A stretch of 64,000 bases of DNA, taken from contig JBMNFY010000007.1 of NCBI GenBank assembly GCA_050949565.1, forward strand, positions 1 to 64,000. The letters run 5' to 3'. How positions within the stretch are numbered: the stretch's first letter is position 1; each line of letters opens with the position of its first letter. This stretch comes from Kiritimatiellia bacterium (GTDB lineage: Bacteria > Verrucomicrobiota > Kiritimatiellia > RFP12 > UBA1067). Shown piece by piece: positions 23,777-36,630 of this stretch. A program made the position numbers and the translations under genes. Below the pieces are notes generated by a model. It was not told where the DNA came from. It worked only from the letters and a program-made list of their open reading frames with translations, and ran no database searches.

Positions 23777-23900
23777 TCTTGCAAAACCCTTCGTGGCATG
23801 GGCGTCCCGCCCATGAACCACGGGCAGGATGCCCGTGCCACGCCGCATGGGCGTCCCGCCCATGGAACACGGGCAAGATGCCCGTGCCACACCTGCAAGA
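23777..23900 (+). repeat. TCTTGCAAAACCC-bounded REP/MITE, internally duplicated copy
   Basis: Same element as 59162-59252 and 62574-62662, with two hairpin doublets and a truncated right TIR. Confidence 0.85.
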
Positions 23901-31052: not shown

Positions 31053-31205
31053 TACTCATCCTTTTACACGAATCGTTAGCCCGAGTCAAAAAATTCTTGA
31101 GTTGCACTTGTACTTTGAACGCCGTTACGTTACGGCTCATGTCGGTTTTTTCTTTCCGGTTTACGGAGGCTTGCCCGACAAAAATTTTTGACTATAATGT
31201 TTCGC

Positions 31206-32714
31206 ATGAAAACTACACAGAGGGGAGACTTGCGGCGGCGAGATGTCCTGTGCGCTCTTTTGGGTGCCGCGACGACGTTTTCGTCGTTTGCCGTGTTTGT
31301 GGCATCATCAATCACCTATGCGGCGGAGCCGACGGCCGCCGAAATCGAAAGCGCTATCATTGCTTCCGCTGCGGAAACAGCGGCGTTGCAGGCAAAGCTG
31401 TCTGATCGCGTCTCGCTTGCCGATTACGCGCCGAAGGTCACGGTGGTCAACGGCACGAATGTGTGGACGGCGGCGCTTCAACAGGCAATCGACGAGCACG
31501 AGATCGTTGTGATTCCCGCGCGGCAAGCCACGTACTACATTGACGGAACGGTAAGGATACCCTCCAACCGCCGCATTGAGGCAGAGGGCGCGACGATTGC
31601 GCTGTTGCCGGGTACGGATGTGGTTATGCTGCGCAACGAGAAGGCTGCGGATGGCACGCTCGCACCGACGCACCAAAATCCACGTGACGACAACATCGCG
31701 ATTATCGGTGGCCGGTGGGAGGACTGGCGGCGCGCGCGCGCTGGTTACGGCAGGAGCGGCCGCTGGGATATGTCCGAACGCAAGCTTGGCAACTACTATG
31801 GCGTCTCAACGCTGATGCTCTTCATCTGTTGCGATCACATCACGCTTAAGGGCGTAACCTTCGCGCATGCAAGCGCCTTTGCCTATCAGGGCGGGAACAG
31901 CAGCGATGTCCATTTGACGGACACGGTTTTTGACCGCTGCACGGCCGACGGCTACCATCTAAACGGTAACCTTTCGCGGGTACACATCCGGAATGCGCGC
32001 GGACAGGTGGGGGATGATCTCGTGGCCCTGAACGCCTATGACTGGCTCAATTCGTCGGTGACATTCGGTCCACAGAAGACGATCCTCTGCGAGGATCTGG
32101 AGTTGGTCGGTCCCGGATATCCGGCGATCCGTATTCTGCCGGCCACCTACCGCTACAAGGACGGGACGGAAGTGGACTGTGCGATCAGCGACGTCATCTT
32201 CCGTCGCGTGAAAGGGATCAAGTGTTTCAAGATGTATTTACAGACCCCCAACTATGCGGTCGGCACAGAGCCGGAGTGGTCCAAGATCGGTTCTGGTGGT
32301 AATCTGCACTTCGAGGATATCGAGATCGATCTTGATCGTCCGATCGACCTGTTCGAGGCCTACACCGGCTCCGATCCGGTGCGTGGGCATTTCGGTGCGT
32401 TCGAGTTCGGCGCGAATCTCACCAGCATCCACTTCAAGAACCTCAAGGTGAAGTTCCATGCCGACCGCTATCCACTTTCGCATCTCGCGGTTGTCGGACC
32501 GAAATCGGTGCGCTTGACGGGTAGGAAAGGGGAGCCGCGAGAGGTGTTCGACCCGTATGTCAACTGCCGCGTGGGCAAGGTCGTCGTGGAGAACCTCGAA
32601 GCAACGGGCGTTGTTCCAGCGAAGCTTGTGCATGCCACCGTTTTTGACGATGTGAACGGCGACGGGCGATCCTCCGGACGCGGCGAAATAGCGGATATTC
32701 GGATCTCGAAGTAG
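31206..32714 (+). CDS. Pectin-lyase-like beta-helix protein (GH28-like) with Tat-like leader
   Basis: LRRRDVL leader; TAALQQAID, DGYH and GDDLVALN motifs. Confidence 0.75.
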   Translation: MKTTQRGDLRRRDVLCALLGAATTFSSFAVFVASSITYAAEPTAAEIESAIIASAAETAALQAKLSDRVSLADYAPKVTVVNGTNVWTAALQQAIDEHEIVVIPARQATYYIDGTVRIPSNRRIEAEGATIALLPGTDVVMLRNEKAADGTLAPTHQNPRDDNIAIIGGRWEDWRRARAGYGRSGRWDMSERKLGNYYGVSTLMLFICCDHITLKGVTFAHASAFAYQGGNSSDVHLTDTVFDRCTADGYHLNGNLSRVHIRNARGQVGDDLVALNAYDWLNSSVTFGPQKTILCEDLELVGPGYPAIRILPATYRYKDGTEVDCAISDVIFRRVKGIKCFKMYLQTPNYAVGTEPEWSKIGSGGNLHFEDIEIDLDRPIDLFEAYTGSDPVRGHFGAFEFGANLTSIHFKNLKVKFHADRYPLSHLAVVGPKSVRLTGRKGEPREVFDPYVNCRVGKVVVENLEATGVVPAKLVHATVFDDVNGDGRSSGRGEIADIRISK

Positions 32715-32720
32715 TGGCCG

Positions 32721-32906
32721 AGTGGCCGCAAAGAACGCAAAGACCGCAAAGAAAGAAGAGTGGTAGATACTCCCAGCCAATTCTATGTGCTCTCTGCGTT
32801 CTCTGCGGCTAATCAACTGGTAGAGGCGCCAATTCAATGTGTTCTCTGCGTTCTCTGCGGCTAATCAACTGGTAGGGAGAGTGGCCGCAAAGAACGTAAA
32901 GAAAGG
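32721..32906. repeat. Hairpin-unit tandem array, upstream part
   Basis: Full unit 32721-32827, right-half unit 32828-32879, left arm 32880-32906. Confidence 0.95.
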
Positions 32907-32921
32907 AAAAGGGGTATTGGC

Positions 32922-33311
32922 ATGAGAACTATGAAAGAATTGTGTGACATCGTGCGTGAAACGGCTTATGCAATTCACGTTTATCACGGTCAGGGACATC
33001 TGGAAAAGGTGTACGAGAATGCCTTGGTACATCGTTTGCGTAAAGCAGGCGTGGTGGTCATGCAGCAACATCCGCTCACTGTATATGACGAGGATGGCAC
33101 GGTTATTGGCGAATATCTTGCGGATCTATTTGTGGATGGGCGTCTAATTGTCGAGTTGAAGGCTTGTCGTGCATTGGCGTTGGAACACGTCGCGCAGGTA
33201 TTAGGTTATCTAAAGTCGGCGAGAGTTGAAGACGGGATGCTGATTAATTTTGGGAGCTATCGCTTTGAGGTCAAGAAATTTGCGCTGAGTGCGGCGGTAA
33301 AGAGGATATGA
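32922..33311 (+). CDS. GxxExxY family protein (PD-(D/E)XK nuclease-like)
   Basis: GQGHLEKVYENAL (GxxExxY), ADLFVDG..IVELKA, HVAQVLGYL and GMLINFG. Confidence 0.93.
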   Translation: MRTMKELCDIVRETAYAIHVYHGQGHLEKVYENALVHRLRKAGVVVMQQHPLTVYDEDGTVIGEYLADLFVDGRLIVELKACRALALEHVAQVLGYLKSARVEDGMLINFGSYRFEVKKFALSAAVKRI

Positions 33312-33627
33312 GTGGCCGCAAAGAAAGAAGAGAGGCGGATGTCTCCCAGCCAATTCTATGTGTTCTCTGCGTTCTCTGCGGCTAATCAACTGGTAGAGGC
33401 GGAGAGTGCCGCAAAGACCGCAAAGAAAGAAGAGTGGCAGATACTCCCAGCCAATTCTATGTGTTCTTTGCGTTCTCTGCGGCTAATCAACTGGTAGAGG
33501 TGGAAAGTGGCCGCAAAGAACACAAAGACCGCAAAGAAAGAAGAGTGGCAGATACTCCCAGCTAATTCTATGTGCTCTCTGCGGCTAATCAACTGGTAGG
33601 GGTGGAGGGTGGCCGCAAAGATTGCGG
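33311..33627. repeat. Hairpin-unit tandem array, downstream part
   Basis: Units at 33311-33404, 33405-33505 and 33506-33607, plus a left-arm stub at 33609-33627. Confidence 0.95.
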
Positions 33628-33648
33628 AGAAAAAGGCGCACCGGCCGG

Positions 33649-33677
33649 TTGACGTGCCTCTTTTACTGGCCTACAAT
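33649..33677 (+). promoter_or_regulatory. Sigma70-type promoter
   Basis: TTGACG-17 bp-TACAAT upstream of AGGAG RBS and ATG 33727. Confidence 0.65.
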
Positions 33678-33726
33678 GTGACCATTGTCGTGGTAGAAGG
33701 CGTGTGCTGTTAAACAGGAGACTGCA

Positions 33727-36406
33727 ATGAAAATGAAGATGATTCACGCGAAGGCTTCGATGGTGGTTACTGTGAAGGCGAGAGGAGTCCTGCTCGGCGT
33801 GGCGGCGGGCGTGCTCGGTGCGCTCGCCGTGCGGGGAGATATCGACGATCCGCTGGCCTATTGGAGTTTTGATGACGCGGAGAACCTGCTTGTCAACCAG
33901 GTGACGCCCAGTCCGCATCACAATGCGTCTGTGCTTTTAGGGACGCCGGTCGCTGGAGTCGCCGACGGCGCGTCTGGCATCGTCGGCAACGCGCTATTGC
34001 TGGATGGAACCGCTGCTATCCGGTTGCCGTATCACCAAGATAACCTGGGAACCTCGTTCACGCTTTCGCTGTGGTACTGGCAGCAGACGAACGACACGCG
34101 CCAGAGTGTCTATCAGACGCGCGACAACTACACGGCCACCTACGAGGCCGAGATCGGTGCTCATAGCCGCTTTGCGAGTTATGCTGGACAGGACTACGTC
34201 GGTGCCATCACCACCGAATTGCGGGAGTGGGTGCATTTGACCCATACGTTTGCCACGGTCGGACGGCACGACCACGCTCTCCGTGTACACCAACGGTGTC
34301 TTTGTGTTCAGCCACAGTGTCGGCAGCGGTGCCGTGTTCGGCGGGAGTGAGATCAGGGGGATTAGAGGGTTCCACATTGGTGCCGCACGCGGCGATTTGG
34401 TGTTTGGCGGTTGGGGCTGGCGCTGTTTCAAGGGGATGATCGACGATCTGGCGCTGTGGGGACGTGCGCTCTCCGCCGCCGAGGTCGAGGCGGTCTACCA
34501 GCGCGGTGTCAGCGGGGCGAAGCTTGCCTTCACGCCGGCGCCGGCGCCGGTGATCTCACTGGGCGGGAAGGATCTTTCCTTCACGCTGAACACAGACAGC
34601 GGACTGCCCGCTGGCATGTTTAACAACGGCTGGCTGATACACAACGTGCAGGACCCCGCTTATCCCTACGTGGCGGCTGACACAGCCAGGCCCGTGCTCG
34701 ACTACGTGCCCGACACGGCGGGACACGCGGAGGGGCCATTCAACGCCGAGGTCGCCGATGTGAAATGGAGGGTGCCACTGACCGATACGATGCGGCAACT
34801 TTCGCAAGGCGATTTCACGCTGGAGACGTGGTTCCGCACGACAGATGGCGGCCGGGGTACGGTGATGGGCAATTTCTATGGTCAAACCCTCGGTGTCGTC
34901 AATCTTGAGTTTTTTTACGACAACCAAGTCCGGCTCTATCTGGGCATTCCTAATTACGGAGACATAGATTTTAAGGCGACGGCCACCAACGTGAACACCC
35001 GTAACGGTCAGTGGCACCATTTGGCTGGCATCCGGCACGGCGACACGCTGTATCTGTAAGTGAACGGAGTAGAAGTGGGGACACGAACCATAGCACCGAG
35101 TTCCTACGCTCTTCTAGGCGATTACCTGTATCTGGGACGTGATAGCCGAACCGCTGTCGCCTTTAAAGGCGAAATGGGGGAAAGCCGCGTCTGGATGCGT
35201 GCGTTGAGTACCAACGAGTTGGCGGAGATCGTCGCCTTCGGCGTGCCGGGCAGCGATGCGCTTTCAAAGGATGATCTGCTCGCCGAGTACGATCTGCACG
35301 CGCCCTTTAATGCCAGCAAACCCTGGACAGGTTGGCCGGGCTATCGGATCCTGCTTGGGGCACCGAAGCTCGGAAGGGTTCCGATGACTAATTTCACCTG
35401 CGAAGCTGTTTTCCGCACGACGTCGACAGGTGCGGGGGCTCTAATGGGGAACTGGTCCAACCATGTGTACAACACGGTGAATCTGCAGCTTGAAGGTCCG
35501 AACGTTGTACGGTTTTATCTACGGAATACGGATGCCGCGACCTGGCTGAGTGTCACGCCTACGGATATCAATACGCGCGACGGCCAGTGGCACCGGCTGG
35601 CTGGCGTCCGGGGCAACAACACGATGGCACTGTACCTCGATGGACAACTGATGGGCAGTCAGGCCGAGACGCTGGGGGCGTATCCGTTGCAAGGGCCGTA
35701 CTACTATCTGGGGCGCGACGGTCGCGCCGATGCTGGCTTTTTGTTCAGGGGCGATATCGCTGCCGCGCGGATCTGGACGCGCGCGCTGAGTGCCGACGAG
35801 CTGGCCGGACTGGCGGCTTCCAACGCGGTGCCGGCCGACGGGCTGCTCGTCCAGTACACGCCCATGCTGACCAACTCGCTGACCACGGCGGGCTTCCCGG
35901 GCAGCCGCTTCCTGCGCTCGTTCGTGACCCTGACGAACAGTGCCGCGCTGGTTTTTACCGATCTGCCGCAACATGACAAAATCGGTCTGGGCATGATGCT
36001 GGCGCAGCTCGGTCAGATGAAGCCGACGGCGAAAGGCGACCGCTTCATGATCCGGGTCGACGGGACGGAGGTGCTCAGTGTCGGTCTCGGCCCCAACCAA
36101 GGCGCAGAGCCGCAGATCAGCACGTTGAGTTTGTTCGGCGAGGCGACGAATGTCGAGGTGTTCACGAGTACCCTGACGTGCGGCGATGACCTCTTCTTCT
36201 GCGGCACGGCCTGGAGTGACTATCGTGACCATGTGTACGATCTCGCGTTGCTGGAGCCGCTGCAGAACATTCCGCATTCGGCCGACACCTTGCTGGTTGA
36301 GATTATCGGCGTTCAGGATGCCATTCCCGAAGAAGCGAGTTTCGGGTTCGACCGGTTCGAGTTGACCGTTTACCCGCGCCGTGGCACGATACTTTTCTTG
36401 CAGTAA
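33727..36406 (+). pseudogene. Multi-LamG secreted protein disrupted by a +1 frameshift and a nonsense codon
   Basis: Extra G at 34261 (HTFATV|DGTTTLSVYTNG) and TAA at 35057-35059 within DTLYL*VNG; ends YPRRGTILFLQ. Confidence 0.85.
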
Positions 36407-36476: not shown

Positions 36477-36594
36477 GTGGCACGGGCATCTTGCCCGTGT
36501 TTGCCTCATGGGCGGGACGCCCATGCCACAAGGGGGGGGGCACGGGCATCTTGCCCGTGTTCGCCTCATGGGCGGGACGCCCATGCCACAAGGG
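36477..36594 (-). repeat. Two tandem 60-bp REP doublets
   Basis: CACGGGCATCTTGCCCGTG..CATGGGCGGGACGCCCATGCCACAAGGGG repeated with a 60-bp period. Confidence 0.9.
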
Positions 36595-36630
36595 GCTACA
36601 GACGGGGATTGCATAGGAGGATAACGTGAA

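Follow-up and report, generated by a model that had tools for sequence, protein, structure and literature searches.

A gene for a 129-aa GxxExxY protein in the genome of a Kiritimatiellia bacterium (assembly GCA_050949565.1; 4.66 Mb, 21 contigs, 60% GC) is enclosed by inverted arms made of 9-nt sub-repeats, and the linkage between genes of this family and such arms is far beyond chance, both within the genome itself and across phyla. The reading that we favour, by a modest measure, is that of a mobile ORF-in-hairpin cassette whose nuclease would recognise the sub-repeats of its own arms. The locus lies in a window of 64,000 nucleotides that is part of contig JBMNFY010000007.1 (C7), and all coordinates given below refer to this window and to features read on its forward strand.

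The cassette is located between two protein-coding genes. Upstream, a 508-aa gene (31188-32714) that had no match in a Pfam search ends in a TAG directly abutting the first arm of the array, and upon inspection of positions 32200-34200 a series of related units was found to begin right after this stop codon, the pattern being clear at 32713-33637. The units follow a common plan: the left arm is rich in purines and composed of 9-nt sub-repeats (CGCAAAGAA type), a loop measuring some 37 nt separates it from the right arm, whose sub-repeats are complementary (TTCTCTGCG type), and a spacer of roughly 20 nt concludes the unit. There are four full copies and several partial ones, in line with the original prediction that hairpin units of about 100 bp surround the gene, and the arms are, as was also claimed, inverted repeats in which the number of 9-nt sub-repeats varies among units, with one to three in the left arms and one or two in the right arms as read off the sequence. 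In the output of Tandem Repeats Finder there are two arrays, one of period 101 at 33316-33583 (2.5 copies, 88% matches) and one of period 52 at 32776-32875. A repeat search of the locus yields a 91-nt unit four times (starts at 32736, 33309, 33410 and 33521), copies of the left arm at six distinct places (32717/32726, 32876, 33307, 33400, 33502/33511 and 33604), and the half unit comprising loop end and right arm five times (32776, 32828, 33349, 33450 and 33552).

Read from left to right, the array opens with a unit (32713-32826) in which a left arm of three sub-repeats (32717-32759) is followed by the loop, a right arm of two sub-repeats and the spacer. Next comes a partial unit (32828-32875; period 52) that consists of loop end, right arm and spacer, is missing the left arm and served as the reference copy of the right half in the repeat search. 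Just 5' of the gene, repeat search and RNA folding place a left arm of two sub-repeats (32876-32909), followed by a purine-rich ribosome-binding stretch. The gene itself occupies 32922-33311, and its TGA is overlapped by the short left arm, with one sub-repeat, of the following unit (33309-33399), which continues with loop, right arm and spacer, matches the 91-nt unit at 71% and the right half at 98%, and was among the units folded. A full unit without gene (33400-33500) and a unit with a left arm of three sub-repeats and a right arm of a single one (33501-33603), both from the repeat search, lead to a degenerate terminal left arm (33604-33637; 68% to the left-arm reference) that closes the array and has a single counterpart at the same place in the close relative G002.

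Folded individually as RNA, the units form long imperfect hairpins, with z-scores on the forward strand of -3.9 for the first unit (-43.1 kcal/mol), -3.1 for the gene-less unit at 33400-33500 (-4.7 on the reverse strand), -1.8 for another, and +0.25 for the unit at 33501-33603, which therefore folds no better than shuffled sequences. When the segment 32870-33400 is folded as a whole, the left arm 5' of the gene is predicted to pair with the first right arm downstream (about 33363-33385), and both the minimum-energy and the centroid structure enclose the ORF, so that the gene would in effect lie within a loop. Hence, the position of a left arm before the gene and the overlap of its TGA with the next unit are as originally described, but the description of this arm as a lone one is not borne out by its predicted pairing.

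The encoded protein passes the curated cut-offs of both TIGR04256 (GxxExxY; 107.5 bits, cut-off 35, E = 5e-31) and PF13366 (PDDEXK_3; 104.2 bits, cut-off 22, E = 7e-30), the latter being its sole Pfam match, and it has both residue motifs of the family, namely the name motif G25, E28 and Y31 and the nuclease motif D68, E78 and K80. In an alignment of 49 sequences, there is no variation at G25, E28, Y31 or K80, and D68 and E78 reach at least 90% conservation; because of this conservation of the catalytic residues, the protein is probably active as a nuclease. The AlphaFold2 model (pLDDT 94.5) has a restriction-endonuclease-like core, and its best fold matches are PD-(D/E)XK nucleases, i.e., Cas4 SSO0001 (4ic1; E = 2.5e-4, TM-score 0.58), LHK-Exo / alkaline exonuclease, lambda exonuclease, the AdnAB nuclease domains and the Hjc resolvase, none of which is close enough to the model to assign a substrate. 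While the fold and the D...ExK motif are thus shared with the Cas4, lambda-exonuclease or RecB-type and the Hjc-type nucleases, the protein is small and, having two cysteines, is without the four-cysteine cluster. It matches none of the sequences of solved structures (0 matches), and the searches of PADLOC and PHROGs returned 0 families each. No link of the gene to a CRISPR or recombination operon emerged from the data gathered on the locus and its relatives. In the table of a 2012 survey of PD-(D/E)XK families by Steczkiewicz, PDDEXK_3 is entered with 'Unknown' function and multiple transfers (PMC3424549), which agrees, together with the Pfam entry, with the earlier statement that GxxExxY proteins are of unknown function and PD-(D/E)XK-like. 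In-frame stops in 3 of the 80 relatives examined (see below) and a frameshift in one of the six copies of the genome itself look like the decay typical of selfish genes, as expected for such an element.

All six GxxExxY loci of the genome are bracketed by arms of short sub-repeats. For a comparison with genes at large, a flank score was taken as the best direct or inverted match between the 120 nt upstream and the 160 nt downstream of a gene, and with a threshold of 18 this score is reached by 81 of 3017 scored genes (out of 3038 crude gene calls) and by 6/6 GxxExxY genes (45, 24, 26, 29, 26 and 22); short-period arrays on both sides are found at only 133 other genes. The paralogues are about 30% identical to each other, and the arm sequence is different for each of them. 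Genome-wide, the full 101-nt unit is found at this locus only, all other sites being arm-length matches of at most 26 nt, i.e., the unit is not equally common elsewhere without linkage to the gene.

Orthologues with 84-87% amino acid identity in three other genera of the family have arms of the same family in neighbourhoods that are unrelated. In G010, a plain loop between one left and one right arm contains the gene, and the order in G014 is left arm, gene, left arm, loop and right arm, as in this window. A scan of one genome per species, with the single protein as query and hence with distant clades sampled only via relatives, found 241 relatives, the best 80 of which (64-85% amino acid identity) were examined together with their flanks. 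According to the record titles, these 80 belong to the Verrucomicrobiota, Planctomycetota, Nitrospirota, Chloroflexota, Cyanobacteria, Acidobacteriota and Hydrogenedentota, and include a Trichlorobacter isolate; the same arm family thus spans at least eight phyla. Among these best 80 of 241 loci, clusters of arms are present within 400 nt of the gene in 76 and on both sides in 47, and the density of arms is 28-fold higher near the gene than in the far flanks (2.94 vs 0.10 per kb). A plain arrangement of left arm, gene and right arm is seen in 18 of the 80, an adjacent gene-less hairpin of left arm, loop and right arm in 29, and a stop codon of the ORF inside or just past the right arm in 21. 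The check envisaged at the outset, i.e., whether repeats are enriched near GxxExxY genes, hence came out positive in the genome itself as well as across phyla.

The arm consensus, AGCCGC-GAAAGAAC-GCAAAGAAC-ACAAAG, has a length of about 29 nt and comprises about three 9-nt sub-repeats. It is matched at 20 or more of its 29 positions in 55 of the 80 left flanks and 48 of the 80 right flanks of the same best 80 of 241 loci, as opposed to 2 of 298 control windows. Variation is almost entirely confined to A/G exchanges at four or five positions, with C and A being 95-100% fixed at theirs. In 1326 pairs of 52 loci, the left arms are 74% identical vs 41% at the third positions of codons for identical residues, where the value of 74% is inflated by the pre-selection of the arm set for likeness to the consensus; even so, the arm sequence itself is conserved beyond mere pairing and far past synonymous sites. 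For a second clade, 22 loci in relatives with homologues of another paralogue were compared: the inverted flank score is at least 16 in 13 and below this in 9, and the closest homologues have the arm family of that paralogue. Repeat family and protein clade, the correlation of which had likewise been suggested as a check, go together, with own arms for each of the six paralogues, one arm family for the relatives of 64-85% identity, and a shared arm family for the closest members of the second clade. It should be kept in mind, however, that arms would track protein clades by co-inheritance alone, too.

With respect to insertion, the comparison of the own locus with relatives is suggestive. The counterpart of the upstream gene in G002 (98% identity) has the same stop codon, and after this codon come just one arm and unrelated sequence, with neither gene nor array; in G004 the divergence begins before the stop codon and there is no arm. 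An exact pair of filled and empty sites was found for the own locus in neither of them, as the downstream neighbourhood of G002 differs and G004 diverges early. Empty sites in relatives, which the original prediction had proposed to look for, are however evident at the nuoJ|nuoK junction, at which 3 of the 80 examined loci are situated. In 33 related genomes with both flanks, this junction is empty in 10, where the two genes overlap or abut (ATGA type), and contains a gene cassette of 494-512 nt in 6, an insert of hairpin size (79-189 nt) in 13 and a short spacer in 4, one of the latter being a 13-nt remnant of an arm terminus. The inserts of hairpin size belong to at least five different, unrelated arm families. 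Base-by-base inspection of 15 loci showed that all inserts begin after the same base, and no target-site duplication was seen when filled and empty sites were compared.

On a tree of the nuoJ|nuoK flanks, the gene-bearing state requires six changes, at least three of which are forced by well-supported branches, and sister genomes differ in arm family. There is no excess of clustering of the gene-bearing state on this tree over shuffled states (500 of 500 shuffles as low). The tree shows rapid turnover and does not give its direction. In 58 of the best 80 of 241 loci the leftmost arm is a left arm, in 43 of these 58 a long co-directional ORF ends at most 60 nt upstream of it, and in 15 of the 43 the stop codon of this ORF is the terminal TAG or TAA of the element itself. 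As judged by sequence comparison, the whole behaves as inserted and horizontally spread DNA, and we consider it very probable that the locus is a mobile cassette.

An alternative hypothesis assigns mobility or self-amplification primarily to the hairpin modules, which would be moved in trans by other enzymes such as hairpin-cutting HUH Y1 or RAYT-like transposases, or by replication slippage and template switching, with the GxxExxY gene as no more than cargo in one family of them. This would accord with the extreme abundance of repeats in the genome, which has 2565 arrays of period 7-9 with 341 unit types, 651 of the 1881 intergenic spacers (35%) containing such an array, with seven Y1_Tnp-like matches in the genome, five of them over the cut-off, and with the at least five unrelated arm families at a single position between nuoJ and nuoK. 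In addition, nine stand-alone genes for four-helix-bundle proteins (TIGR02436, the 23S-IVS protein family) are all enclosed, when judged by eye, by inverted arrays of 7-9-nt units, four of the nine also reaching the automated score; since these genes do not encode a nuclease and have the identical layout, the architecture needs no nuclease in cis.

Moreover, when 41 genomes of the order are compared, the highest copy numbers of the arm motif are those of G013 (39; 97% complete) and G021 (40; 95% complete), in the form of gene-less hairpins and solitary blocks, and a search of both assemblies gave no match to the GxxExxY protein at E <= 1e-10; genomes with an orthologue of 84-87% identity have 5-12 copies of the motif, and the backwards control pattern occurs 0-1 times per genome. 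There are only 15 small genes of this sort in the genome, and the repeat units next to them have no higher genome-wide frequency than those next to random genes flanked by arrays (655/1712 vs 662 +/- 86; 260 of 500 random sets as high). Finally, arm blocks of another family are mostly single (77 of 85 clusters) or stand in arrays of one orientation, and blocks are chained with those of other families; thus, the hairpin is not the sole form in which arms occur.

The main argument against the hairpins as the primary entities is the constancy with which a given arm sequence accompanies a given protein clade over at least eight phyla, which is hard to explain by host factors, as a trans-acting factor that differs between phyla should not hold the two together. 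In addition, the arms are laid out differently from the REP-like palindromes on either side of the RAYT-like gene in this genome, and the catalytic residues of the nuclease have remained conserved. Taken together, we regard this explanation as unlikely, albeit as the chief rival.

The cassette might also be understood at the level of RNA, by analogy with the intervening sequences (IVS) of 23S rRNA: in the transcript, the ORF would be enclosed by a stem of about 28 bp that serves RNase III processing or stabilisation of the message, and the role of the protein would be unrelated to the repeats. The helix-45 IVS of Coxiella burnetii, which encodes S23p, has the same geometry, i.e., a small ORF within a 28-bp stem of terminal inverted repeats that is cut by RNase III (PMC4990558). 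The predicted enclosure of the ORF by its flanking arms in the fold of 32870-33400 would fit such a role, and in G010 all four mismatches between the arms are G-U on the sense strand. Furthermore, contigs from two RNA libraries span arms and gene (32846-33400 and 32876-33360), which is compatible with transcription, although strand, ends and level cannot be read from them and carry-over of DNA is possible. One RNA-library contig joining 32817 to 33499 was considered as a gene-less allele and rejected as too weak (a side of only 33 nt, with 8 other letters and 6 extra letters).

However, A-C mismatches on the gene's strand exceed G-U mismatches both in 24 gene-enclosing stems (48 vs 25) and in 37 gene-less hairpins (74 vs 50). 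This wobble test lends no support to a sense-strand RNA stem, the bias being opposite to what selection on such a stem would produce, but as the loci are related the skew carries little weight. Likewise, the conservation of the arms extends to their sequence, beyond pairing, both 23S rRNA genes are uninterrupted, and an RNA role leaves insertion and loss unexplained. An IVS-like function as the explanation of the locus is improbable; it would be compatible with either of the mobile readings, rather than exclusive of them.

That the locus represents ordinary intergenic repeats beside a small gene by chance, or a mis-assembled array, is highly improbable: the genome is indeed extremely rich in repeats and short-read contigs break at every unit, but the linkage at 6/6 own loci and 76/80 cross-phylum loci stands against low control frequencies (81/3017 genes, 133 array-flanked genes, 2/298 windows), and in two independent DNA runs the depth summed over the repeated units exceeds that of the single-copy flank by a factor of 3-4.5 (75-121 vs about 26 in X1, 930-1174 vs about 332 in X4), which is consistent with four full units and partial ones and argues against the assembly artefact named as a possible objection to the original prediction. 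The stretch recurs in 14 public DNA runs (0.77-0.81 of sampled words), which stem from 10 or more studies of digesters, bioreactors and landfill. Two DNA runs of separate studies each have a contig (484-493 nt) that spans 32876-33360 with 0 other letters. The first 8 nt of the array (32713-32720) are a strain-specific duplication that is missing in three of the four runs compared (X1, X4 and X16).

Amongst known systems, the ORF-bearing IVS of 23S rRNA come close to the cassette in that an ORF of about 120-130 aa lies within terminal inverted repeats of about 28 bp able to form one long stem, as is the case here in the fold, in the gene-in-loop arrangement of G010 and in the 18 loci of plain layout. 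They share with it a sporadic, horizontal-looking distribution, IVS being regarded as selfish, and their protein family is the very one encoded by the nine stand-alone four-helix-bundle genes with the same inverted-arm layout. The cassette differs from them in its position between protein-coding genes instead of within rRNA, both 23S rRNA genes of the genome having 2906 nt for 2925 model positions and no insert, in carrying a PD-(D/E)XK nuclease as cargo, in the composition of its arms from 9-nt sub-repeats, and in its gene-less, tandemly amplified copies.

In turn, REP/REPIN sequences and their RAYT (TnpA-REP, HUH Y1) resemble the cassette as a single small gene flanked by hairpin repeats that are also found without the gene, sometimes in tandem clusters, and with an own repeat family per gene clade. 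However, the enzyme of the cassette belongs to PF13366 and is not a Y1 HUH protein, Y1_Tnp matches being located elsewhere in the genome; its arms of about 29 nt are triple 9-mers, whereas REPs are GC-rich palindromes of 20-40 bp, as are in their GC-richness those flanking the genome's own RAYT-like gene; and gene-less copies of this arm family are few in the own genome (5-6 sites). The idea of a selfish nuclease-plus-repeat system, as put forward originally, is thus supported in part, i.e., for the linkage and for the character of inserted, horizontally spread DNA, and its comparison with RAYT/REP applies to nothing but the layout, as the enzyme is not of the HUH Y1 type.

Bacterial MITEs such as Correia and ERIC elements are short non-coding inverted-repeat insertions at gene boundaries that are co-transcribed with their neighbours and present or absent among relatives. 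The cassette is like them in being a short inverted-repeat insertion at gene boundaries with presence and absence among relatives, but differs from an IS-derived MITE since neither a DDE-transposase parent nor, at nuoJ|nuoK, a target-site duplication was seen, since there is no transposase in the cassette, and since its autonomous form encodes nothing but the 129-aa nuclease. By analogy, the gene-bearing, gene-less and empty states at one site and the arm length of about 29 nt may also recall a free-standing PD-(D/E)XK homing endonuclease gene. In the literature searched, i.e., on GxxExxY/PDDEXK_3, on IVS, S23p and four-helix-bundle proteins, and on intergenic palindromic repeats of Verrucomicrobia and Kiritimatiellae, no description of the gene-arm linkage was found.

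Returning to the mobile cassette, the locus may be viewed as a single copy of a compact, horizontally mobile element whose nuclease gene, about 390 nt long, lies within cognate inverted arms of about 29 nt, and the gene-less hairpins with the same arms would be its derivatives, here tandemly amplified on both sides of the gene. The nuclease might bind the sub-repeats and nick or cut the arms or hairpins, which would result in insertion, in copying into related hairpins, or in local amplification of units. We infer such an action of the encoded nuclease on the arms tentatively, with rather less than even confidence, because the determinant of specificity appears to travel with the element. Target-site duplications were not observed, and hence the element would seem more likely to be copied by repair or recombination, with the arms as regions of homology, than to be transposed by cut-and-paste; such copying would also fit the layouts in which the gene has a left arm on either side, as in G014 and in this window. 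Unequal exchange or break repair between units could have given rise to the tandem units.

In its widest form, which we consider doubtful, the proposal would amount to a new class of mobile element that has a stand-alone PD-(D/E)XK nuclease of about 125 aa as its only encoded protein, reading the triple 9-nt sub-repeats of its own inverted arms. Such an element would be copied or inserted exactly at the borders of genes and leave the target unduplicated, would often provide the stop codon of the neighbouring gene, would occur in at least eight phyla, and would spawn gene-less hairpins and tandem arrays filling much of the intergenic DNA, with the four-helix-bundle cassettes of IVS type as a sister class.

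GxxExxY/PDDEXK_3 is a large cross-phylum family without an assigned function, and its link to cognate hairpin arms offers a concrete, testable substrate. The turnover at a conserved operon junction is precise and leaves no scar, which suggests a targeting mechanism, and the same layout at four-helix-bundle genes provides a connection with the ORF-bearing intervening sequences of 23S rRNA, for which an explanation has long been lacking. Should the nuclease indeed act on the arms, DNA would move here in an undescribed way, which would help to explain the short-period hairpin repeats found in about a third of the intergenic spacers of this genome.

With respect to the repeats without a GxxExxY gene beside them, arm blocks of the ATGAAAC family are found in long tandem arrays of the Kiritimatiellia genome G000, each comprising 6-17 units of 106-216 nt. 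These arrays are located on contig C17 (46-1780, 453403-455380, 731888-733002 and 1433622-1434511), and none of them adjoins any of the six listed GxxExxY loci of this genome, so that the formation of an array needs no adjacent gene.

Inverted arrays of 7-9-nt units, as judged by eye, also enclose all nine stand-alone genes of G000, all outside the window, that code for four-helix-bundle proteins (TIGR02436, 23S-IVS-protein family), and the sequence of the array differs from gene to gene. Five of these genes reside on C17 (395446-395766, 399225-399545, 1211488-1211814, 1741898-1742218 and 1755954-1756274), two on C20 (20564-20884 and 24952-25269), and one each on C8 (62233-62547) and C18 (11315-11632), the last being followed downstream by about 30 copies of the unit GAAACCCN.

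The array in the window opens with an 8-nt duplication, AGTGGCCG (32713-32720), that is absent from three of the four public runs compared and is therefore specific to some strains. Shortly after the array come two ORFs (33727-34350 and 34250-35059) that overlap in different reading frames and look like a single gene for a secreted protein, interrupted either by a frameshift or by an error in sequencing. The window further contains two GC-rich tandem palindromic repeats (23796-23890 and 36479-36595; 49/60-nt period, 93-98% matches), which are of another kind than the 9-mer hairpins, and a RAYT-like gene on the same contig (C7:218920-219462) is flanked by GC-rich palindromes that resemble them. 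In the related genome G002, the lone arm downstream of the orthologous upstream gene is adjoined by a GC-rich element roughly 260 nt long; with some 90 matching places across the contigs of G000 (70-93% identity), this element represents a separate high-copy repeat family.

Among the 80 related loci (L023-L102, the best 80 of 241 relatives), 15 of 43 have an upstream gene whose stop codon is the TAG or TAA at the terminus of the element. At 21 of the 80, the GxxExxY ORF extends into the right arm and ends at the terminal TAA of that arm, the sequence of which is thus translated as a tail. In 24 gene-enclosing and 37 gene-less stems from these loci, which are not independent of one another, mismatches are for the most part transitions, and on the strand of the gene A-C mismatches outnumber G-U mismatches (122 versus 75 in total), so that the antisense strand would pair better.

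In the relatives of genome G041 (L105-L138), a single nucleotide position between the normally overlapping genes nuoJ and nuoK harbours, depending on the relative, hairpins from at least five unrelated arm families, the gene cassette, or nothing, the empty states being free of scars. The nuoJ|nuoK junction is an insertion hot spot.
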